DNA of 64,000 nt, from contig OX597825.1 in assembly GCA_951406725.2 (NCBI GenBank), forward strand, positions 44,764,001-44,828,000, given 5' to 3'. The notes under the pieces were generated by a model, which saw only the letters and a list, made by a program, of their open reading frames with translations, ran no database searches and was not told where the DNA came from. Below are positions 6,960-53,444 of the stretch, in pieces. The DNA comes from Octopus vulgaris. Lineage: Eukaryota. Position 1 is the first letter of the stretch; each line of letters begins with the position of its first letter. A program made the position numbers and the translations under genes.

Positions 6960-7721
6960 CTTATCTTTTTACAGTTTTTTTCTTCTTTCTAAAGGATATT
7001 TAACTGTGGTTTATATTTTTTAATCAGTATAATTTCCTTATTTAAAGAAAATTTGGTTGAAGTGTTTCCAGTGCATTAATAGAGAGGGAAGATTTAGTAT
7101 TTAGGGTTTATGTCTACGGGGCATTGGTCTAGGTGCTTGCTTACGGGAATTTTCCTAGTGATGGGGGTCCCAGATTTGTTGCCTGTGTACCGTAAGTCTA
7201 TCCCTCAAAGTTAAGCTAGTTTGACCTATGTAGTCCCCACTACAACCTCCACATTTGAGAACATAGATTAAGTTCTTCGAAGCACAGGTGAAGTCATAGT
7301 TTATGGTAAAAGTTTGATCTGACTTAAATTTCTATGTTGAGCCCTCTAAGAGGAAGATGCAAGTTCCGTAGTTAGAGCGGTTGCACTTTTAGTCTTATGG
7401 GGTTGTATTTTTGGTGGGTAATTTGGCGCTGGGGAGTAATTTTTTTAAGGATTGCGGTTGTCTCTTGCTTTTAATAATCCTATGTGTTTCCAGTACCTTT
7501 TTCATTCGTGGGTCCTTCATAAGGAGGGGTATGTTTTGGTGGACGATGTTGTATGCTCCCATGTTTCTTGGATTGTGTGCTGATACGTAAGATAGAGTTT
7601 TAAGTGTGTCATGGTGTTTTCTTGTTATCTGTAACCCTCGGATGTCTATCATTTTTGCACATTCTATTCCATTCATGATTAGACTGGCCGGGTATTTTCT
7701 TTCTAGTAATATAACTCTCAC
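6960..7721 (-). mobile_element. Penelope-like element 3' fragment (thumb region + GIY-YIG)
   Basis: ORF 7395-7721 (KYPASLI...YVSAHNPRN...SKRQPQSLKKLL). Downstream minus-strand frame reads FTCASKNLIYVLKCGGCSGDYIGQT...RLTVHRQQI. Confidence 0.85.
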
Positions 7722-7801
7722 TAAATATGACTAGGGTGTTATAACTCTCACTAAATATGACTAGGGTGTATATAACTCTCACTAAATATGACTAGGGTGT
7801 T
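7711..7801 (+). repeat. Three tandem copies of a 30-31-bp unit
   Basis: ATAACTCTCACTAAATATGACTAGGGTGT(T/A) x3 at the 5' truncation point of the PLE. Confidence 0.95.
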
Positions 7802-12335: not shown

Positions 12336-12866
12336 AGAGGATTAGTAAGTCTTTTCTTGCAGTCGTTCAGTACCATTCTGTGCGTGTGGGGAGGAGGGAG
12401 ACAGAGAGAGAATGTAATTCACTCTCTCTCTTTTTCTCACACACACACGCACACATACGTACAAAAATATGTATGCGTATTTGTATATGTACGAATTCAT
12501 GACACATTCTGTCAGAAGTTGGTCTTTTGACCTTTGGTTTTTCCTTTTGCGTCCTTTTTGTTCTACTGGAAGTTTGTCATATGCATGAAGTAATAGACAA
12601 CATTAGATATTATTCTTGTCATCAGCTTCCACATCAGGAGTAGACAGGTGATAGGCCGATAATCATCCACTACATTGCCTTTACTAGAATCCTTTTAGCA
12701 AAGAATTATTTTACTTGTGGTCACTTAGAGACAAACTTTTTGTGGAAACTCTTCTGAGCATTCTATTCCAAACTCTTTCAGCCATCTGTCCATATCTTTG
12801 CTTACCGTTCCCAATGCACCAATTATTCTTATTCTTATTCTTATTCTTCTTATTCTTATTATTATT

Positions 12867-13608: not shown

Positions 13609-13656
<48 letters not shown>

Positions 13657-14214
13657 GAGTGAGAGAGCAGTGCATGCCATCAAAGTGACACTGGGGTAAA
13701 ATATACGAAGCCTAGTATACCCATCATGACTACCCGTCTGATAAGGGTACACCAGGCACATACATCACAACCATATGTGCGCGACATGGTGATCTCATAT
13801 GAAGATAAACAGCACATGACCTTGCAGGTGGGGCCCAGTTAGAATTTTCTTCTGGTCAAGTAACCCATCTCGCTCAAAAGGTCCCTGAATAAGGGTTGTT
13901 TAAGGATGTTGAATGAAACACCTATGTTTCCAGAGGTGAATTATTCAAACTCCATAGAATCCCCCTCAACACATGGCTATGATGCTCCCCCACTACTTCC
14001 GCTCGTGATCAGAGAAGCACATATTGTCAGCCACTAAGGGACATGCTCAACTGGTTATGGTCAAACAACTGACAAGCAAATCTGTGGTATTGAGCAGAAT
14101 ATTTGCTGTAGCCCATCCATCTTTTATACCAAGACAAAACAATGTACATGATAACACTTCCAATCTGTTAAGATCAGAAGCCATGAGAGCCACTGCCTGG
14201 TACTGCATCAGGGC

Positions 14215-14218
<4 letters not shown>
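13657..14218 (-). mobile_element. Non-coding interspersed repeat, copy 2
   Basis: Highly similar to 14264-14820; bounded by (ATT)n on both sides. Confidence 0.85.
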
Positions 14219-14263
<45 letters not shown>

Positions 14264-14816
14264 GAGTGAGAGAGCAGTTCATGCCATCAAAGTGACACTG
14301 GGGTAAAATATACGAAGCCCAATATACCCATCATGACTACCCGTCTGATAAAGGTACACCAGGCACATGCATCACAACTATATGTGCGCGACATGGTGAT
14401 CTCATATGAAGATAAACAGCACATGACCTTGCAGGTGGGGCCCAGTTAGAATTTTCTTCAGGTTGAGTAGCCCATCCCGCTCAAACGGTCCCTGAATAAG
14501 GGTTGTTTAAGGATGTTGAAAGAACCACCCATGTTTCCAGAGGTGAACTATTCAAACCCCAAAGAATCCCTCTCAACACATGGCTATGATGCCCCCCACT
14601 ACTTCTGCTCGTGATCAGAGATGCACATATCGTCAGCCACTAAGGGACATGCTCAACTGGTTAAGGTCAAACAACTGACAAGCAAATCTGTGGTATTGAG
14701 CAGAATATTTGCTGTAACCCATCTTTTATACCAAGACAAAACAATGTACATGATAACACTTCCAATCAGTTAAGATCAGAAGCCATGAGAGCCACTGCCT
14801 GGTACTGCATCAGGGC

Positions 14817-14820
<4 letters not shown>
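14264..14820 (-). mobile_element. Non-coding interspersed repeat, copy 3
   Basis: Same sequence and termini as copy 2; bounded by (ATT)n. Confidence 0.85.
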
Positions 14821-14877
<57 letters not shown>

Positions 14878-15413: not shown

Positions 15414-15599
15414 TATTGTTGTTGTTGTTGATGTTATTAAACTTCCAGTAGAACAAAAAGGACGCAAAAGGAAAAACCAAAGGTCAAAAGACCAACTTCT
15501 GACAGAATGTGTCATGAATTCGTACATATACAAATACGCATACATATTTTTGTACGTATGTGTGCGTGTTATTATTATTATTACTAGTACTACTATTAT

Positions 15600-18130
15600 T
15601 ACTATTATTATTAAAATTAAATTAAATTCAAAGTTAGCAAACACTGAAATTTCAAAATTAAACCGGAATAACTGCGACGTCATCAGTCTTCGTTTTTTCA
15701 CAAAAGGTAGCAGAAGGAAGGAAAGGAAAAAAAAAACAAAAAGAAAGAAAAGAATTGAAAAAAAAAATTGTTCACTCAAAATTATAGTATAAATATGGTG
15801 GAATTCCTCCAAGCTGAGATGTCAAGAGTTCACAAATATATATTTATCCTCATGGGTTTTGAGGACTGAAAGTGCAGGGGAATGAGGGTGATTTTTGAGA
15901 ATGTGCACCTTCAGGTCCTCCTCAAATTTACACCCTTTTGATGTGAAATGCTCCACAAGTTCCGTGGATCGACTGTTATTGCACCTGACGTCGTACCTAT
16001 GCCCATTAAATCTTTTTTGTAATCGTTCTGTTGTGCAACCAGCATAAATCATTTTGTGTTTAATGCATTCCACTGCATGCACCAAATGGGAATCTCTACA
16101 GGTCTCTCCTTCTGTATCAATCATAACATTTGTTATAATTCTTGCTGGAATTGGTAAGGCTCGTGTTATTGCACAACGAGCAGGGTGTTTTGGGTGGTAT
16201 AGCGTTCAGAAACTCCAATGGACCTTTTATTAACGACACTGGTGAATATTTCTCTAATATTTCTATTACGTCTAAAGGCTACAATATGCAGAAGAGGAAA
16301 TATTTGTCGGAAATGAGGATATTTTTCTGAAACATGCTGGTAACTGTCATACAACACTTTTGAAATGCCAACGAAACTTCGGTGCCAGTTAATCAATAAA
16401 GGAATTCGGTCATAAACTCTTTTCTGACTGCTAAAATTAGGCGTGAAAATTTGATCACCACTAATTTCAGCTATGTCATTCGCAATTTCCTTTGATCTTG
16501 ATTCATTATAACCGCGCTTTACATAAAAGGCGCACCAAAGTATTTGCCTATTTCCAATAATCCCCAATGTCTTATCCTCAAAAACTAAGATTTTGGATTT
16601 TATCTGATTGTATAATGTGGATGATCATAGCGGCGGTGGAGATAAATATGGGATGACTGTTCGGCCTTCCGAAAACTTGACTTTTGTGTCCTAAAATTAG
16701 ACGCTAGTATTTGAAAAGCTCGACGTGAATTTTATCTTGGACTTAAAACCATAGTCTTCTGCGAAGCAGTCACAGAAATTTAAAAAATGACTAAACTAAC
16801 CTGTTTTCCTTCCCAGACAAAAGAAAGGCGTCGTCAATGAACCATAAGCAGAGTATAGGTTCGTGATCAGGCAGAGATTTAGATGTCTCCATTAATTGCG
16901 TTTCAAATTTTGTCATGAAGGCATTTGCGAAATTAACTGCCATAGGGGTACCCATGGCGCATCCCTTCGTTTGATGGAAACATTTTTTCTCCAAACTTCA
17001 TTGTGTTACTTTGTATGCACAAATTTTAATAATTCACAGAGAAACTTTGAAGGAATACTTTTCTTTGACGATTTTTCAAAGGCTTTCATGCATGCTTCCA
17101 CCCCAACATCGTGATCGATGTTGGGGTATAAGGAACAAACATCCATGGTTACAAAAAAAAAACGGTCTTTAACACTACTTCGGTGTTTAGAAAATTTGTT
17201 CAATTTGGAAACAAAATCAAAAGTTTCCCGAATGTAGGAATTTGATCTTTCAGCTACTGAGAGCAGAAAGCCATCCAAGCATTCTGAAATTTTAGCAATG
17301 CATTCATACCCAGTGCAAATTGGGCGCAATTATGGAAATTTTTCGAATTTTTTATGTATTTTTGGAAGACCGTAAAATACAGATGTTCTTCTTTCTGAAC
17401 GTAATAGCTTAGATTCCATGTCATTTATAAAATTCTTTTTCTACATTTCCAAAATTATAAGTTCCTCTCTGTAATTGGGGTTTGGATCTACAGGTAGTTC
17501 TTCATAAGTTTTGTCAATTAAAACTTCTTCACAAGCTGAAATGTACTCGTTCTTGTCCATAATTATAATAGCACCTCCTTTATCCACCATCTTAATAACA
17601 ATAGAATCATTGTTTGCTAGGCGACGGAGTGTGCTACGCTAGGAATCCGTAAGGTTAACCAGCTCTTTTTCCTACAGGAAATTCCTATCTAACAAGATTT
17701 GAGAAATTCCAACAGTGCTTGTGAACGTCCGGATACCAATTTGGATTCTTTAAAATCCAATTATGCCAGATCCGATCATCATCATTTCTTTCAACAAACA
17801 TGGGATTTTCAGACTCCCCGTTACCAATTCTTTCAAACAAAATGTTCTTGAAGCTTGTGACGGTGGACAAACTGATATAATCCTTGTGTTCATTTATTTT
17901 TGCCAAAATTCTTAGTGCTTGGGCAGAAACTAAGTCCAAGTTCTAAGACAGAGATATCGTCTGGTGAAAGTTTTAACTTTGATAAATTTATTGCCGTCTT
18001 ATTTTCTAACATGGTTGATTTTCTTGGTCTAGAGTTTTCCTTAGCATTACTTGCATCATATTTTTTACTCTCTTTTTGGGGGCTTTGATGGAAATCCTCA
18101 CTTAAAACATGGAATCTGTTAGGTGTCAAA
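15600..18130 (-). mobile_element. Penelope-like element (N-terminal region, RT, GIY-YIG), frameshifted
   Basis: AINLSKLKLSPDDISVLELGLSFCPS; VIKMVDKGGAIIIMDK; FVTMDVCSLYPNIDH; QTKGCAMGTPMAVNFANAFM; WFIDD; VECIKHKMIYAGCTTERLQKRFNGHR. Confidence 0.92.
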
Positions 18131-18225: not shown

Positions 18226-18543
18226 TTAGTTTTTGTTGGCATTTGAAACATTTTCTTTTTTTAGAAAAGGAACAAATTTATTGTCCTCAAGCCATTTTTG
18301 ATTGATCAAATAGAAACTTTTTTCTGGTGAGTTTCCAATGACCTGTTCAAATGCGTATGCTAGCGCAAAAAGACCACAATCGTACGGACCAGCCTGGGGA
18401 TTAATTATTTCAACTTGTTTAATTGTAGGTGTTATGTTGTTTTGTGGCGAGTAGAGAGTAATTATCTGCGTGGTTAGTTCTTGTAAGATGGATAAATTTA
18501 AACTGTCATATACATAGACGTCTCCGAAAATTTTAATTTTCAT
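18226..18543 (-). pseudogene. Ulp1/SENP (peptidase C48)-like cysteine protease fragment
   Basis: VYVYDSL (catalytic Asp region) and PQAGPYDCGLFALAYA (oxyanion Gln + catalytic Cys). The catalytic His is not visible. Confidence 0.75.
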
Positions 18544-18803
18544 ATTATAATTTGGGCTTGGCTCAGGTTCAGTCTTATTCCTGGTAGGAATTATGTGGAT
18601 AGCTCATAGTTCATTGTTTTCTTGCTTTTTATTTTTTGTTTCATTTTTGTTTATATTTTTTCTTTTCGTCAAGTCATTTAGTGTCCAGTTAGGAATATTA
18701 TAACTATAACTTATAAATGGGACAGCGAGATTATTGATGCCTCTTACCTTATTTTTCTGACTTAAGCATTAATCTAATTCGCTTATAATATTCCTTCCTC
18801 AAA

Positions 18804-19549: not shown

Positions 19550-20570
19550 TAGTATTTTCAGAATCCACATGATGGCAGTGGGAAATGCTCAGAACATCTT
19601 TTGTTTCTGCAGTTTTCAATTGTGAGTTTCTCTTCTTCTGGAAACATGTTGTTTTCTTCCATATGTCTGCTTACTGTCAGTGATATTAATGCAGGTAAGA
19701 CTTTGTTAAGTGGCAGAGGTACATAATATGGGTTTGTAGTTTTGTGGGTGTGTGATTTCATTAGATTTGACAATTAAAATTATTTTCCTTTCGTTGTGTC
19801 TAGGGAGAGTCATTAAGCCAATATTAATAACACACGCACTTGTTCAATTCCACTCTTTTATTATTAGTCAATTGGTTAAATATCCGACTAACTAATCGAG
19901 TGTTTGTTTAACTTGGTTAAACAGTTAGTCGTTTGTTTGGGTTTTGTTTGTCTTGTTTTTTTCGTCAAAGGTCTTTCGTTGCTATCTGCAACCCTTCTAG
20001 TGGCTTTTATTTTAGTCTGTTACGCGTTTGTCGTCTGTCTGAGACCTTGATGCGTGCGAGTGTTTAACCAAGTTACACAAACAAACAAATAGTTAGTTGG
20101 ATATTAAACTAAATGACTAATGATAAAGGAGTGGAACTGGACCAGTGCATGTGTTATTAATATTGGTGTAATGACTCTCCCTAGACACCATAAAATTTGT
20201 TTGAACACACGAATTATCTCATTCCCGTCAGCGTATCACTAAACTTCTCGTCCAACTCCTTATCTGTCCTTGTTAAATAATTTAATCAAAAGTTGGGGAT
20301 CTTGTCGCTTCCTGGTGCCTTCCATTTGTTTGATTTTTGCAGAACCTGGTTTATTTATTCCGTTATTATGAGTGTCCAAGTTTGTTCAAGTGCTGAGTTT
20401 ATTGTTTTGTTCAATATTTTCCTGCGTGATTCCTTCGCAGCCTTTAATGCTTCCAGAAATACTTCTAATTTTGTTGGTAATATCTTCTGCATTGATCTCT
20501 CTATTTTATTTTAACCAAGTTAAATATCTGAGGGAGTATCGGCTTTCCTTTGTGACTACAGAAGTTGCTA
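19550..20570 (-). mobile_element. R4/Dong-like RT N-terminal relic interrupted by a MITE
   Basis: WKAPGSDKIPNF at ~20290-20325 and RHMEENNMFPEE at ~19630-19670. Confidence 0.6.
19795..20188. mobile_element. MITE-like element with ~130-bp diverged terminal inverted repeats
   Basis: GTGTCTAGGGAGAGTCATTA...ACTTGGTTAAAC versus GTTTAACCAAGT...TAATGACTCTCCCTAGACAC. Confidence 0.8.
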
Positions 20571-20714
20571 CATATTTTATTTAGCCTGTTTATGTTGATG
20601 TTTGTATCTGTTATCATTAAGCCTGTGAACGTCAAATTTATGTATTCCACTGTAACTAGGTACATAAAATCTTCGAACAGACGGTCAGTAGCGACACGTG
20701 CGGGTCTGACTACG

Positions 20715-20755
20715 CTGCATTGATAAAGGGCAACAACCCTGAAACATGTCTGCAG
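20715..20755 (+). ncRNA. Minimal type I hammerhead ribozyme, U3:A8 variant
   Basis: CTGCA-TTGATAA-AGGG(CAACAA)CCCT-GAAAC-AT-GTC-TGCAG; all three stems pair; GUC cleavage triplet. Confidence 0.85.
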
Positions 20756-20932
20756 ATGTCTGACTAGCAAGGTGAAGCGGCTGACCTCCCCTGTTCGAAG
20801 GTTGTAATATGGTAGTCTATAAATATAAGATTAAAGCTGTCGCTGATTAGCTAGCTATATGACACATGAACCTGTGTCCATTACAACCTTCGAACAGGGG
20901 AGGTGAGCCGCTTCACCTTGCTAGTCAGACAT

Positions 20933-20972
20933 CTCAGACACGTTCCAGGGTTGTTGCCCTTTATCAATGCAG
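20933..20972 (-). ncRNA. Inverted copy of the U3:A8 hammerhead, degenerate (GGAAC)
   Basis: Minus strand: CTGCA-TTGATAA-AGGG(CAACAA)CCCT-GGAAC-GT-GTC-TGAG. Confidence 0.65.
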
Positions 20973-21862
20973 CGTAGTCAGACCCGCAGGTGTCGCTACT
21001 GACCGTCTGTTCGAAGATTTTATTTACCTAGATACAGTGGAATACATCCACTGTTCGAAGGTTGTAATAGACGCAGGTTCGTGTGTCATATAGCTAGCTA
21101 GAGGCGATGGCCTCTTGGAGCTAATCAGCGACAGCTTTAGTGTTATATTTATAGACTACCATATTAGTATGGCGATAACTATTAATATCCAGTAACGCTG
21201 CCGTAATCTCCTTTAGAGAGACTTAGTAATTTTAATATTTCTATTATATATATATATATATCAGGAATTATATTCTCCTTGATTTGACAAGTCATCTGTT
21301 TACAAGCTGACCACAGACGGACACACAGACACGGGCTCCTATCAGCTGCCTGACCAACAAAATCAGCAGTTCTCTTTCTCTCTACCCGCTGCCTGACAGA
21401 CTCCCACACATACACAGGCGCGCACACACATACATGTAGGTAGGGTCCCACACCTATATAAGATAGCCTTAATTCTTAAAACAATCCGAACATTAACTTT
21501 AGTTATACAGAATATATTCACACCCTTTGGTTTTCAGTATTTCTTCCACTACCAGGGTTGACCGCAGTCTGACCTTGATTTATTCCAACGGACTTTTTCG
21601 TCGGCCTCCACCCCCCCCCCTGACGTCAACGCATATTGAGAGACAGTTTTGTGCTTTTTCATGGGCTCCTAAGGAGCGTTTTGTTCGAATACCTTGCTGC
21701 GCATTTGTTTTGGATTTTTAAATTCCTGGATTTTCCTGAAGAGAATGCTGCAAAATGGTCTCCTTATTCAATCCGAATTTGGAAATTTGCGGCCTTTGAA
21801 ACATGTGTAGAAAATAATAAAAGGAATTCTGTAGCATCTTCGTTCAGCTCCATTTCTTCCCT

Positions 21863-21908
<46 letters not shown>

Positions 21909-21979
21909 GGCGAGAATACTCGTTATAAATATCACCCCAGTGGCCTAGCATATATAAAAAGTCAATAGACAACATATTC

Positions 21980-22207
21980 GTATTTCAAAATAGAAAATTG
22001 CCCTTTAACAGGTAATTTTTACATGCTAGAAATAGCAGCCCAAACACAGCCAAAAGCCACAATTTTATAGCAAATTTCGAAGTAAAGGTTTTTATTTTTC
22101 ATTTACTTCCGAATTTGCTATAAAATTGTGGCTTTTGGCCGTGTTTGGCTGCTATTTCTAGAATGTAAAAATTACTTGTTAAAGGGTAATTTTCTATTTT
22201 GAAATAC

Positions 22208-22208
<1 letters not shown>
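21980..22208. repeat. Inverted repeat, ~107-bp arms with ~15-nt loop
   Basis: CGTATTTCAAAATAGAAAATT...CGAAGTAAA versus TTTACTTCCG...AATTTTCTATTTTGAAATACG. Confidence 0.9.
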
Positions 22209-22252
<44 letters not shown>

Positions 22253-22380: not shown

Positions 22381-23174
22381 TGTTAGGTAAAAATTTTTTT
22401 TTAAAGTGAGAAAGGGGAAAAAAGAAAATTGCATTGTTTTTTGCAAAAGAATAATAATAAATATGTACAAAAATTTTTAAATAAGTACTCCGATACATTG
22501 TGAATTCTTTGTGTATCTTGAGTTTAATGATTGTTCACGAAAAAATTACCTTGAAGTATTAGGATCCAATGGGATTAAAACCATGTGTTGTTTAGTTTAA
22601 TTAAGGATGTTGGCAAAACAGGAAGTAGTAGTAATTGTAGTTCTTCAGTTCCTGTGTTGTGAATAAGGGGAGACAACTCTTTTGAGTTCTTCACTTTGTG
22701 TTTATCAACTTTTTGTAATAATTTTTTGCATGCTTAAAACCGTTAATTGAAAGGACCAATGAAACAAATCCATTTTTAAAGGTGTCTACTTCTACTAGTT
22801 TTGATTATAACGTTATTTCTGTTCCATTACAACAAAAGTGTCCGACGAATGGGAACGTGAACCTCTGAATAACAGCTTTTGTTATATTTCTGCTGATTTT
22901 AAATAAAACATATTACTCTACCTCTGGTATTTGAGTACTCTTTTTTCCACCTTGTCCCACACATCTTATTTCACATTTATGTGCTTACTCCGGTGTATAT
23001 ATATATAACGTAAAGTATACTAGCCAACTCAATATGGCTAACCACTAAGGGTGGGTGTTACTGTAGCTTTTAGCCCCAGGAGATCATCGTCTCCAGCTGT
23101 CTTTAGGCACACTTTCTTTGCACTTATGGTATTTGCAAAGGAAGGTCATCCCTCTCTCGTAAACCCAAGTGATA

Positions 23175-23219
23175 CGCACGGACTGCAGTTTCGAGGTATT
23201 TGCCTCTTGTCAACGTACG
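23175..23219 (-). ncRNA. Minimal type I hammerhead ribozyme, U3:A8 variant
   Basis: Minus strand: CGTACG-TTGACAA-GAGG(CAAATA)CCTC-GAAAC-TGCA-GTC-CGTGCG. Confidence 0.88.
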
Positions 23220-23346
23220 GTAATCACCGGTTTTCGATGAAGAGAGACCTGTTTGCAAATATCTATTTAAGGTTTTTCCCAGTAACTACTGTCACTGATT
23301 TCGAAAAACTGTCTGCAAGCAATAATAAATCTCTGAACGTGATTAG

Positions 23347-23391
23347 CGTACGTTGACAAGAGGCAAATACCTCGAAACTGCAGTCCGTGCG
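23347..23391 (+). ncRNA. Minimal type I hammerhead ribozyme, U3:A8 variant
   Basis: CGTACG-TTGACAA-GAGG(CAAATA)CCTC-GAAAC-TGCA-GTC-CGTGCG. Confidence 0.88.
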
Positions 23392-23543
23392 TATCATTTA
23401 GGTTTACGAGAGAGGGATGACCTCCCTTTGCAAATACCATAAGTGCACAGAAAGTGTGCCTAAAGCCAACTGGAGACGATGGCTAGTATACTTTACGTTG
23501 TCGAGCGGTAAATGTTTACATCTCGTTCAGAGATTTAGTATTG

Positions 23544-23613
<70 letters not shown>

Positions 23614-28829: not shown

Positions 28830-29040
28830 CAGGTGCAGTTTTCAAGAGGAAGAGTTAGTCGATTGCACTAGCCCTAGTATTTGACTTGTCCTTTATGTTA
28901 TCAGCCCTGCAGGGATGAACGATAACGTTGGCATCTGCAAGATTTGAAATCATAAACGTTATGATTTCAAATCTTGCAGATCCCAACGTTATGTAGCAAA
29001 GCATTTTCTATGCTCTAACAATTCTTCCCACACGCCAACT
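28830..29040 (-). mobile_element. Degenerate SINE containing an internal foldback duplication
   Basis: AGTCGATTGCACTAGCCCTAGTATTTGACT...GGATGAACG...GATTTGAA; hairpin at 28922-28992. Confidence 0.6.
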
Positions 29041-37885: not shown

Positions 37886-37993
37886 CGGAGATGTAATTGC
37901 ATAGCAAGTGACCTGATCTGAGAAAACAATTGCAGCGTGGAAGGTAAGTTATTTAAGAAACACACTGTAACATGACTGTTACTTTGTCTACGA

Positions 37994-38634
37994 TTAATTC
38001 TTTATGAGATATAGACAGTGACTGCTCCGTAATATAAGGGATATTAGCCAACCGAATATGGCTAGGGACAGGGCAGGGTGGTGGGGGTGTCACTGTTGCA
38101 TTTAGCCCCAGGCGAACATCAACGTCACCAGATAGGCCTGACGCCATCACGGCGTCCTTTATCTTGCAAAGGGAGATCACTCACCAAGAAGCCGATACCA
38201 CCTGGGGCTAAATGCAACAGTGACACCCCCACCACCCTGCCCTGTCCCTAGCCATATTCGGTTGGCTAATATCCCTTATATTACGGAGCAGTCACTGTCT
38301 ATATCTCATTTAGAGAATTATTATTGCTGTCGAACGGATTTTCGAAATCAGTAAATGTATTTACTTGAAAATCCTTATATGTATCTTGCAAAGTTGGTCG
38401 TTCATCGAGAAGCGATGCCTACCACACGTTGATAATAGGCAACACACCTTGAAACCTAGGTCCGTGTGTGGTATCGGCTTCTTGGTGAGTGATCTCCCTT
38501 TGCAAGATAAAGGACGCCGTGATGGCGTCAGGCCTATCTGGTGACGTTGATGTTCGCCTGGGGCTAAATGCAACAGTGACACCCCCACCACCCTGCCCTG
38601 TCCATAGCCATATTCGGTTGGCTAATATCCCTTA
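37994..38634. mobile_element. Non-coding foldback element related to 23007-23499
   Basis: ~37994-38111 is inverted at 38202-38320; ~38037-38201 is inverted at ~38467-38634; shares TAGCCAA..AATATGGCTA and TTTAGCCCCAGG with the 23-kb element. Confidence 0.85.
38423..38468 (+). ncRNA. Minimal type I hammerhead ribozyme, U3:A8 variant
   Basis: CACACG-TTGATAA-TAGG(CAACACA)CCTT-GAAAC-CTAG-GTC-CGTGTG; first pair of stem II mismatched. Confidence 0.8.
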
Positions 38635-38895
38635 GATTAATTCTTTATTTTGTATATTTTCATCTGTCTTACCCGCTTATGATCTGGTGTTTGCTAAATT
38701 TCTCTAGAGAACATTCTTTTCTTTGTGGTTAGATCGTAGGTGATCTTCTTCTAGCATATTGGATGTCCACTTACTGGTCATCACTTATTATACGCATGTA
38801 ATACAATTTTTCTGAATTTTCAGATTTTTCTATATGCTAGGCTACTGGTATCTAACTTGATGTTAATTATATTAATATTCAATTTATCACCTTCA

Positions 38896-46099: not shown

Positions 46100-47942
46100 C
46101 GGGAAGCTTTATGAAAATAGACAAAAGACGAAGGCAGGTGGAAAACAAACGAACAATTGTATTAGTATGGCGCTCAGGAAATATAAATAAAACAAGTCTT
46201 TAACGTTTCGAGCCTACGCTCTTCAACAGAAAGATACACAGAGAGAAAAAAACACAGAAAGAAGGAGAGAAAAAAATGCGTGCAGTAGCTAACGAATCAA
46301 CATGGCGATCTGATTTCGGCCAGAGGTCAAAGATCAAACATGAGACGCGAGAGCGAAATAAGGGGAGATAATAGGGTTGATAATATGGTTGAAGGACCAG
46401 CTAATAGTGCGTAGGAGGGGTCTGGACGTGTATGTGTATAGGGTTGGTGTATGTATTAGTATGTATAAGGGTGTGTGTGTGTGTGTGTATGTGTGTGTGT
46501 GTGTGTGTGTGTATGAGAGAGTATTAGTGCGTAGGATTGGTGTGGACGTGCGTATGTATGGGGTTGGTGTATGTATTAGTATGTATTAGTATGTATTAGT
46601 ACGTATTAGTATGTATAAGTGTGTGTGTGTGTGTATGAGAGAGTATAAGTGCGTATGAGGGGTCTGGACGTGTGTATGTATAGGGTTGGTGTATGTATTA
46701 GTATGAATTAGTATGTATTAGTACGTATTAGTATGTATTAGTTGGTGTATGTATTAGTATGGCACATCATATATGATGTGATGTGTGAAGTCGTGTGGTG
46801 TAGTGAGGAGAAGAGGGGGGAGGAGGGGGAGGATGAGAGGGGGAGGAGAGGGGGGAGAGGAGAGGAGGGGGGAGAGAGGGGAGGGGGAGAAGGAAGGGGG
46901 GAGGGGGGAGGGGGAGGAAGGAGGAAAGAGGGAGAGGGGGAGTGGGGGAGTGAGGGAGCAGTGGGAAGGGGAAGAGGGAAGGAGGGAGGGAGAAAGAGGA
47001 AAGAAGGGAAGGGGAGTAGGGGTGAAAGGATGAAGGACTGAAGAAGTAGGGGTCGGGGGAAAAGATAGGTGAGGAGGTGGGAGAGGGGGTTAGATGAGGA
47101 GGGGGGAGAGTTGAGACCAAATGGCGTATAAGAGCGAAGAGAGAAGATTAATTCCTGTTCACGGCGCAAACGGGAATCCGGATGGCCTCTGTGTAAGGAC
47201 AAACCGAACACAGATAGGTGTTGCAAGGAGTGACCGGTGGAGCGGAAATGGCGTGAGACCGGTGTGCCGTTCGCAAGGTGGATGTCACGAAGGTGTTCCG
47301 CGAACCGGTCAGCCAAGCGGCGTCCCGTTTGTCCGATGTACAAGGAATTGCAGAGAGAGCAAGAGATGCAATAGATAATATTGCTGGAGGTGCAGGTGAA
47401 GGAGTGGATGATGGGATAGGGTCGATGGTGGGTGCTAGTGAGGCGGGTGGTGTTGGAGAGGTAAGGGCAAGTGCGGCAACGTGGGCGGGAGCAGGGGAAC
47501 GAGCCGGGTTGGGAGGTAGGGTCAGGGAAGGAGCTATGGACCAAAAGGTCTCGAAGGTTGTGGGCTCGTTTGAAAGAGGGGAGGGGTCGGTTAGGGAAGA
47601 GGTGTGAAGTGGACGGGTCGGACTGGAGATGACGGAAAGCTCGAAGAATGGTGCGTTGGAGACGTAGGGTCGTGGGGTGGTAAGTGAGGGGAAAAGGGAG
47701 GCGGGAGACTACAGGGCGGGTTCGGGGAGAGAGAGCAGATACACGGTCCACGGACCGTGCTCTGGCAAGGGCGGTGTGGATAGTGGTGAGGGGGTATCCA
47801 CGTAGGGTGAAGTGGTGAGCCATACGTTGAGACTGAGTCTCAAAGTCATGGTCGTCACTACAGAGCCTACGTAGACGGAGGAATTGGGAATAGGGGATGG
47901 AAAGTTTGGTGTGTTCTGGGTGGGAGGAAGAGAAGTTGAGGT
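46100..47942 (-). mobile_element. 5'-truncated Penelope-like element with GIY-YIG, low-complexity 3' UTR and pLTR
   Basis: [24 protein letters not shown]; CSRPRCRTC; [36 protein letters not shown]; GLN. Confidence 0.95.
46197..46233 (-). ncRNA. Hammerhead motif in the PLE pLTR (U3-G8 core)
   Basis: Minus strand: TCTTTCTG-TTGAAGA-GCGTAGGCTC-GAAAC-GTT-AAAGA; hairpin GAGC-GTAG-GCTC. Confidence 0.6.
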
Positions 47943-48289: not shown

Positions 48290-48950
48290 GGTGTGTGAAA
48301 GCACGTGGTTGGATGTATAAAAAATAGAAGAGTGAAAAAACTGCAGAAGGCTTGTTTTATAAAGTTAAAGAATATATTTAAGTTGTTATGTTAGAAAAAT
48401 GTTATAAAATTTTGTATATAGTAACATAGTTTTTGGAGAAATAACCGGTTTCGTGTAAACTTTTCAAATTTTTCAAATGTCTTTACCTACATCGTTTCAT
48501 GTCTTCGTTATGAAGTGCAAAGAAGAGTTCCGGGCAGGGGGGGTAATAAGGGATTTCTTCCGGTATAAGGGAGATAATCGCTTTATATTTCCTTTCCCCT
48601 TTTTTAATGAGATGAGTTTCTCTGTATAAGAATGTTACGATGTTTAAGTTTAGGCTTATATTTTTCAATGAATAATGTTTCCTTTTTTAATCTAATTTGT
48701 GTTGGTGTTCCAATAGCACATTGATAGAATGGAAAGATTAAAACTTGTGGTAGAAGTTGCTTTGCGCATTTCTCAATATGCTCACTAAAGGGTATCATTC
48801 TGTATTCTGGGAATGCAATCTGTTGTCGATGCAGAGTACATCTGCGTCGGAGTGATAATCCTGTGGACCCTACGTAGTTTTGGTGGCAGCCCGAGAATCT
48901 TATGACATAAATTATGTTTTCAGAAGCACAAGTAAAATTAGATCTTTCCA
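48290..48950 (-). mobile_element. Penelope-like 3' fragment (GIY-YIG + pLTR)
   Basis: FTCASENIIYVIRFSGCHQNYVGSTG...LHRQQI...ETLFIEKYKPKL. Confidence 0.88.
48438..48473 (-). ncRNA. Minimal U3:A8 hammerhead motif in a PLE 3' region
   Basis: Minus strand: AAAT-TTGAAAA-GT(TTAC)AC-GAAAC-CG-GTT-ATTT. Confidence 0.65.
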
Positions 48951-48962
48951 ATAAAACATGGA

Positions 48963-49191
48963 GGTAGACGATACAAAGAAAACAAGGACAGGTCATTCGA
49001 AGTTTTCTATCCTAGTCAAGCATCAGATTATCCTCGCAATTTCGGCTGATTATTCTTGATGTTGATTCTTCATATTTTGCTGATAGTTTACAAGCGTAAG
49101 AATAATCAGCCGAAATTGCAAGGATAATCTGGTGCCTGTCTGAGGAAAAAAAACTTCGAATGACATGTCCTTGTTTTCTTTGTATCGTCTA
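48963..49191. repeat. Inverted repeat, ~95-bp arms with ~40-nt spacer
   Basis: TAGACGATACAAAGAAAACAAGGACA...TTCGGCTGATTATTCTT versus AAGAATAATCAGCCGAA...TGTCCTTGTTTTCTTTGTATCGTCTA. Confidence 0.9.
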
Positions 49192-49273
49192 TCTGGATGG
49201 TTTGTTGTCCCTTTTTGTATCACCCAGCTGCCCGGATGTTTTGCGTTCTCATCCCATTTTTTATTATATATAT

Positions 49274-53295: not shown

Positions 53296-53444
53296 TGTGT
53301 GTGTGTGTGTCTGTGTATGTGTTCCTTTTCAACCTTCTACATATATACATATGTAGAAGGTTGAAAAGGAACACATGAGTTGATATGTATAAGGAAGATA
53401 AGACAAGATAGAAAATGCTAAAATAATTTTATCATGAAGAACAT

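Follow-up and report, generated by a model that had tools for sequence, protein, structure and literature searches.

A U3-A8 hammerhead on a likely non-LTR retrozyme of Octopus vulgaris, inserted with the architecture of Penelope-like elements

A recent insertion in the genome of Octopus vulgaris contains a 356-nt non-coding unit with a type I hammerhead motif whose core pair is U3-A8. This unit is likely a non-LTR retrozyme that was copied in trans by a Penelope-like element (PLE). The window, which is the whole 64-kb stretch of DNA that was analyzed, also contains two related hammerhead families, at 23 kb and 20 kb. PLEs have been proposed as the mobilizers of animal retrozymes, and PLE-specific ends on a short unit without an ORF provide a different kind of evidence. 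The U3-A8 core, the palindromic helix III, and the U·U at the base of helix II have each been published before, and no single feature is new; the added value lies in the combination of a canonical hammerhead with a fixed U3-A8 pair, an abundant retrozyme, and insertions with the full PLE stamp.

Architecture of the insertion at 38 kb

The insertion occupies positions 38006-38634 and lies inside an exact 14-bp AT-rich duplication. The preliminary description had given the span of the element as 37994-38634; the right end was correct, but the left end has to be moved to 38006. The parts of the insertion are:

37992-38005, no strand: left copy of the target-site duplication, 14 bp, AT-rich, an exact direct repeat of 38635-38648
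38006-38034, minus strand: 29-nt tail corresponding to 38279-38307 (0/29 mismatches; mapped on a doubled unit)
38035-38201, minus strand: inverted, 5'-truncated copy of the 3' half of the unit, corresponding to 38468-38634 (1/167 mismatches), with a head-to-head junction
38201-38278, plus strand: end of the preceding unit, a partial tandem resembling a pLTR, corresponding to 38557-38634 (1/78 mismatches)
38279-38634, plus strand: one entire unit of 356 nt, non-coding, with a predicted fold that is highly self-paired
38635-38648, no strand: right copy of the target-site duplication, with which an unrelated flanking repeat begins

In unit coordinates, the inverted arm comprises positions 190 to 356 and 29 nt of the next unit, whereas the direct arm comprises positions 279-356 followed by 1-356. 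The tail at 38006-38034 is the portion in which the inverted arm continues past the end of the unit into the start of the next one. The inverted arm is without a ribozyme because it begins 5 nt downstream of the predicted cut site. In total, the insertion consists of 1.2 units, a head-to-head inverted copy, the 29-nt tail, and the 14-bp target-site duplication. The duplicated parts differ from one another at 1/167, 1/78, and 0/29 positions, so the insertion is young.

The circular minimum free energy (MFE) of the 356-nt unit is -117.3 kcal/mol, with a z-score of -4.6 against 60 shuffles (-3.1 for the opposite strand). The unit contains no ORF, its longest stop-free stretch being 76-86 aa, and a tblastn search with 52 PLE-type proteins revealed no reverse transcriptase plus GIY-YIG ORF in the element. 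The 38-kb element is not an autonomous PLE. Within the 64-kb window, no locus has two or more hammerhead-bearing units in succession.

Four PLE remnants with similarity to the reverse transcriptase and/or the GIY-YIG domain are present in the window, all on the minus strand:

7083-7724, minus strand: PLE remnant
15876-17683, minus strand: PLE remnant
47116-47940, minus strand: PLE remnant
48640-48984, minus strand: PLE remnant

Pfam gave only weak matches for these fragments, and a homologue search settled one of them. No sequence common to the unit and an autonomous PLE was found among the four remnants. A 260-nt palindrome (48949-49207) forms the end of the remnant near 48.6 kb, and a frame upstream of the 16-17 kb remnant (18229-18603, minus strand) has a weak match to an Ulp1-like peptidase (PF02902, E = 0.01, below the cut-off). 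Further long palindromes or inverted pairs are located at 2460-2572, 19796-20188, 21974-22213, 28922-28992, and 53317-53376; none of these five had a hammerhead match with the covariance model described below. A 131-nt perfect inverted repeat (12445-12575 and 15439-15569, 2.9 kb apart) encloses a tandem duplication with a period of 607 nt (13609-14865).

The hammerhead motif and its relatives

The motif at 38414-38475 on the plus strand was recognized by descriptor scan, pair comparison, and covariance model. It has the three helices of a type I hammerhead arranged around the conserved core, an open helix I, and an NUH cut site, with cleavage predicted after C 38462 (GUC). A UAC/U internal loop separates helix I from distal helix I. 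The parts of the motif are:

38414-38419 and 38470-38475, plus strand: distal helix I
38423-38428 (CACACG) and 38463-38468 (CGTGTG), plus strand: helix I
38429-38435, plus strand: core U3-U4-G5-A6-U7-A8-A9 (TTGATAA)
38436-38450, plus strand: helix II, with U·U at its base and the loop CAACACA
38451-38454, plus strand: GAAA box
38454-38461, plus strand: palindromic helix III, AC-CTAG-GT

A descriptor for the full U3/A8 motif had four matches in the window, at 38423-38468 (+), 23346-23392 (+), 23175-23219 (-), and 20715-20755 (+), and none in any of 200 shuffles. In metagenome contigs, six pattern matches were rejected as chance, as on folding none of the six forms helix I around the core. The motif scan of viral contigs returned 0 matches. 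The related loci in the window are:

23007-23545, no strand: element of a related family, a head-to-head insertion with a period of ~357 nt (self-comparison, unit mapping)
23168-23228, minus strand: U3/A8 hammerhead of the 23-kb element, 20/20 pairs intact
23338-23398, plus strand: U3/A8 hammerhead of the 23-kb element (pair comparison, covariance model, Rfam Hammerhead_1)
20705-20763, plus strand: U3/A8 hammerhead of a third family, helix III AC-AU-GU, without BLAST similarity to the 38-kb unit
20925-20982, minus strand: decayed second hammerhead of the third family, with an altered GAAA box and a 1-nt loss in helix I (29 bits, E = 5e-07)

The 38-kb element had been described as a diverged relative of the 23-kb element, again built from inverted duplications. 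Both points hold: in a comparison within the window the two elements are 68% identical over 348 nt (E = 4e-21), and self-comparison recovered inverted and direct duplications in each. The stem, loop, and core strings quoted for the two elements are all present, both 23-kb hammerheads having CGTACG/CGTGCG as helix I, TTGACAA as core, and AC-TGCA-GT as helix III. The unit is circularly permuted in the two families (356 nt at 38 kb, 357 nt at 23 kb). One end of the 23-kb element is at unit coordinate 356, as in the 38-kb element, and the other is ~50 nt further and adjoins a (TA)n tract, beside which a target-site duplication is not resolvable. We rejected the generalization that inverted arms always end at the cut site, which is nearly true at 38 kb but refuted at 23 kb, where the ribozyme lies within the arm.

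A covariance model built from only the three 38-kb and 23-kb hammerhead copies, and thus without the 20-kb copy, found 20705-20763 with 43 bits (E = 6e-12). Among the 16 matches listed, the next best after the five hammerhead copies scored 14 bits. The surrounding locus (20640-21166) has a circularly permuted unit of ~270-290 nt; read in the sense of the ribozyme, its arms join tail-to-tail through an inverted stem that belongs to the unit itself (20880-20904), a plan opposite to the head-to-head plan of the 23-kb and 38-kb elements. No target-site duplication was seen at this locus.

In Rfam searches, the 38-kb motif matched Hammerhead_HH9 (RF02275) with 19 bits (E = 0.013; gathering score 52), and 23338-23398 (+) matched Hammerhead_1 (RF00163) with 21.7 bits (E = 0.0024; gathering score 34). 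Both matches, within clan CL00010, are below threshold and came from narrow scans only; the scan of the entire 64-kb window returned zero hammerheads at E-values up to 1. Because their Rfam scores fall under the gathering thresholds, U3/A8 hammerheads escape routine annotation, and searches that require a C3-G8 core can overlook canonical hammerheads even where these are abundant.

Every intact copy has a 3-nt bulge (UAC; UAG in one) opposite a U, past helix I, and loop II begins with CAA in all intact copies. The bulge and loop II align to the consensus of Rfam HH9 and Hammerhead_1; the motif is therefore read as a canonical hammerhead with tertiary contacts and a swapped core pair, not as the minimal PLE form. 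In a model without tertiary terms, the monomer MFE of the 38-kb motif favors a non-catalytic pairing by ~6 kcal/mol. A predicted non-catalytic alternative fold of the 38-kb copy pairs the 5' strand of helix II (UAGG, 38436-38439) with CCUA of helix III (38455-38458); this pairing is absent at 23 kb.

Copies of the unit are not confined to the window. Part of the unit is present in 20 of the 24 listed public runs, under five organism labels; no run recorded as RNA is listed among them, which says nothing about expression. Four runs aligned to 38279-38860 yielded 1831, 1531, 616, and 22 contigs, counts that include contigs on the 226-nt flanking repeat; summed depth is not a copy number. No empty-site allele was seen in this alignment, which covers the right flank, itself a repeat. 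The 356-nt unit is an abundant, multi-copy repeat. One contig from run X3 joins 38634 back to 38285 head-to-tail, and loose contig ends in runs X2 and X5 read across the same 38634/38285 junction; the public contigs are too short to span two ribozymes. Contigs of the 38-kb family are also present in X6, an RNA run by guess. Within 38408-38482, the contigs have majority variants at 38415, 38473, and 38476 that still allow a long distal helix I, although in a shifted register, and the distal helix I of the 38-kb copy in the window is a minority form among public contigs.

Pair changes, the core pair, and helix III

We counted 20 pairs (six in helix I, six in distal helix I, four in helix II, two in helix III, and two that the palindromic loop would form in a dimer). 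When the 38-kb copy is compared to the 23-kb minus-strand copy, ten of these are unchanged, six changed on both sides and remained paired, three changed on one side and remained paired, and one is broken, G10.1-C11.1 being replaced by U·U. Half of the six double changes are in distal helix I. The preliminary description had reported compensatory changes in the ribozyme stems, and the six double-changed pairs bear this out; however, the 6-bp helix I it quoted contains just one of them (A-U/G-C), next to one change to a wobble (C-G/U-G). Its account of the stems also missed distal helix I and omitted the pair-breaking U·U at the base of stem II.

In simulations, the probability of the observed pattern was 0.002-0.03 when the changed sites were fixed and the bases redrawn, depending on the transition bias, and at most 2e-4 when the changes were placed at random sites. 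For the originally quoted stems alone, the corresponding values are 0.03-0.10 and 0.001-0.008; the finding is better supported than those two stems show. Six double-changed pairs were matched or exceeded in one of 500 shuffles, and slid controls gave 0-1. Among changed pairs, 9/10 were kept in the motif; outside it, the unit kept 8/28 changed MFE pairs (p = 0.002, Fisher test), although register shifts inflate pair loss in this control. In the comparison to the 20-kb family, nine pairs changed on both sides and still pair, and three are broken. These counts come from two lineages (three with the 20-kb family), take the structure from the same sequences, and are not an R-scape analysis. Selection on the hammerhead fold, as had been proposed, is supported by this comparison of sequences.

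Pair 10.1-11.1 is U·U at 38 kb, A-U at 20 kb, and G-C at 23 kb, so that G10.1-C11.1 is not shared by the families. U10.1·U11.1 is reported to be compatible with hammerhead activity, and natural forms with it are known (PMC3088659, PMC4209133); the axolotl retrozyme family HHR_Amex2 has U·U at the base of helix II (PMC7229834).

U3 and A8 occur together in all five window copies, which belong to three families; the 3:8 pair is thus Watson-Crick in each of them. This supports the earlier contention that the core is not the product of decay from CUGAUGA. The cores TTGATAA and TTGACAA differ at position 7, as described. The single-stranded core bases are identical across the three families (chance 0.03, calculated for 12 sites, 75% identity, and two families). 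U3-A8 is a published natural covariation of hammerheads, reported to be compatible with activity (PMC3088659), and U3-A8 cores were described in Schistosoma Cercyon PLEs, with ~1,300 matches (PMC4209133).

The variants in the public contigs were assessed from 40 of the 79 variant entries. Among these, only two sites vary within 38423-38468: 38443 in loop II, where the majority has T in place of C or is 1 nt shorter, and 38434, where A8 is replaced by G in 8%, 13%, and 23% of the summed contig depth in X2, X3, and X5 (DNA or unclassified runs) and in one contig from X6. A-to-I editing was rejected as the source of A8G, since the change is also found in contigs of runs guessed to be DNA. None of the same 40 entries affects U3 (including U3C) or the U·U positions; therefore, the A8G subfamily probably has the core U3·G8, and U·U is probably the family state of the 38-kb unit. 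The constraint on U3:A8 suggested by the preliminary description is consistent with the pair's presence in 5/5 copies, but there is no 3:8 covariation among them, and the A8G minority is the main result against a strict constraint.

The loops of stem III, CTAG at 38 kb and TGCA at 23 kb, are unlike each other but both palindromic, as the preliminary description stated. By our own arithmetic, the chance of retaining a palindrome after all four loop bases changed is ~1 in 9. The energies favor dimer use: paired with themselves as 8-bp duplexes, the two helix III palindromes reach -11.4 and -11.1 kcal/mol, against +2.0 and +2.9 for the unfavorable hairpins of the monomers. In the folding model, the best support for dimer competence comes from the 20-kb family, in which the 2-nt loop of helix III is unable to close in a monomer. 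That dimer competence is under selection is plausible. A 2017 paper reportedly dealt with dimeric PLE hammerheads. Palindromic helix III has already been reported for PLE hammerheads (PMC4209133, PMC3088659). Monomers of invertebrate retrozymes with canonical hammerheads cut well, at 0.1-0.8 per minute (PMC7229834), so cleavage need not depend on dimers.

Mobilization, alternatives, and known systems

Like non-LTR retrozymes, the unit is non-coding and tandemly arranged, falls within 150-450 nt in size, and carries one type I hammerhead. Its size and rod-like fold also fit retrozyme circles, which are 170-400 nt (PMC7229834). The PLE signature consists of a partial tandem, an inverted 5' copy, a one-sided tail of 30-40 nt, and a target-site duplication (PMC3846280, PMC8557442); Pen2a, for example, has an inverted 5' copy, a 31-bp tail, and a 9-bp target-site duplication (PMC3846280). 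All four are present at 38 kb, where the tail is 29 nt, and the 23-kb element has an inverted arm and an overhang of ~50 nt. With the purified PLE protein of Anolis, the tail was equated with the span between two internal start sites of the reverse transcriptase (PMC11167929).

In the course of events that we propose, source loci holding several units likely give rise to tandem transcripts. The hammerhead of each unit would then cut after GUC. A contact of loop II with the UAC bulge is predicted to aid this step, and so may, within multimers, an 8-bp helix III formed by two neighboring palindromes. By analogy to other animal retrozymes, the monomers would be ligated to circles. A PLE protein with reverse transcriptase and GIY-YIG domains would nick AT-rich DNA, and copying would start at two internal sites 29-50 nt apart and ~170-220 nt downstream of the cut site, once per target strand; the insertion ends name these two likely start sites. 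Such two-strand copying would yield the architecture seen at 38 kb, with its direct arm of more than a unit, head-to-head inverted arm, one-sided tail, and 14-bp duplication. The direct arm crosses the cut site, so the template would have been an uncut multimer or a circle. With its single ribozyme, the 38-kb copy is itself likely unable to release a monomer.

The crossing of the cut site also fits an internally deleted PLE terminal repeat that was copied from uncut tandem transcripts, with a real but slow or dispensable ribozyme and no circular RNA. The insertion architecture is wholly PLE-like, and the Anolis PLE assayed in vitro mostly used uncut RNA as its template, with hammerhead mutants leaving insertion unaffected (PMC11167929). 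However, the 6-bp helix I, the 4-bp helix II, and the nucleotides for tertiary contacts are typical of retrozymes and differ from the minimal PLE form with its long helix II, and the unit resembles retrozyme circles in size and fold; we regard this origin as unlikely. After a loss of catalysis, the fold could have been kept as a structure that the reverse transcriptase uses for binding or priming, which would agree with the U·U that closes helix II, with the A8G minority, and with the decayed 20-kb minus-strand copy. This we consider improbable given the identity of the single-stranded core bases across three families, and both U3-A8 (PMC3088659) and U10.1·U11.1 (PMC3088659; HHR_Amex2, PMC7229834) are reported to be compatible with activity.

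The near-perfect inverted arms (1/167 mismatches) could also suggest a MITE-like DNA hairpin or an assembly artifact, with the hammerhead as a chance reading, and PLE loci are reported to be often mis-built in short-read assemblies (PMC8557442). The arms, however, are circularly permuted and unequal and are not terminal inverted repeats, the flanking 14-bp duplication is exact, and the same architecture is found in a family of 68% identity; the descriptor matched 0/200 shuffles, and the six pattern matches in metagenomes were without a hammerhead fold. An explanation of this kind is very improbable.

The preferred reading, a retrozyme copied in trans by a PLE, accords with published proposals. 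PLEs were named in 2020 as candidate mobilizers of animal retrozymes (PMC7229834), and a 2026 preprint supports them in this role by co-occurrence and pLTR similarity and derives retrozymes from PLE terminal repeats (bioRxiv 10.64898/2026.07.22.740005). In the same preprint, eight of nine predicted Xenopus retrozyme dimers were uncleaved in vitro. A repeat annotation of Octopus vulgaris includes PLEs; ribozymes go unmentioned in its main text (PMC13282606). The combination of U3-A8, palindromic helix III, and U·U was not found in the literature, although supplements of the retrozyme papers could list such families. Literature on hammerheads in octopus and other cephalopods yielded no account of the 38-kb family; supplements aside, neither did the hammerhead and PLE literature contain a canonical U3-A8 hammerhead on a retrozyme with the full PLE stamp.

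A broader reading is possible, though doubtful. A large animal retrozyme superfamily may have fixed U3-A8 on a canonical, tertiary-stabilized hammerhead and so go unnoticed both by descriptors for CUGANGA and at the Rfam thresholds. Copies of more than one unit that bear every part of the PLE fingerprint (an inverted arm, a target-site duplication, and a tail at fixed positions of the unit) would then be direct structural evidence of PLE enzymes reverse-transcribing retrozyme circles. In this view, the A8G subfamily may represent a still extant U3·G8 stage between the two core pairs.

With Rfam Hammerhead_1 and Hammerhead_HH9, the motifs share the topology, the GAAA and GUC boxes, and a loop II starting with CAA; the 23-kb loop II, CAAAUA, is identical to the RF00163 consensus, and the UAC bulge is as in the HH9 consensus. 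The window motifs differ from both in the U3/A8 core.

PLE insertions and pLTR hammerheads (PMC3846280, PMC8557442, PMC11167929, PMC4209133) share with the window elements the partial tandem, the head-to-head inverted 5'-truncated copy, the one-sided tail of ~30 nt, the AT-rich target-site duplication, and the palindromic helix III, as well as hammerheads on opposite strands 100-700 bp apart and, in Schistosoma Cercyon, U3-A8. In contrast to PLEs, the unit has no reverse transcriptase/GIY-YIG ORF and returns to its start after 356 nt, and its motif is canonical (short helix II, looped helix I), whereas the PLE form is minimal.

Animal non-LTR retrozymes (Cervera & de la Pena 2020, PMC7229834; bioRxiv 10.64898/2026.07.22.740005) likewise have a tandem non-coding unit of 150-450 bp in which the GC content is under 50% and which carries a single canonical type I hammerhead with a 2-bp helix III and a tetraloop, a strongly self-paired fold, and a long target-site duplication, with U·U as in axolotl HHR_Amex2. 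The main texts of these two sources do not mention inverted arms of retrozymes. The core is U3-A8 in the 38-kb element and C3-G8 in these retrozymes; moreover, the window copies are insertions of 1.2 units with an inverted arm and a tail, in contrast to plain arrays.
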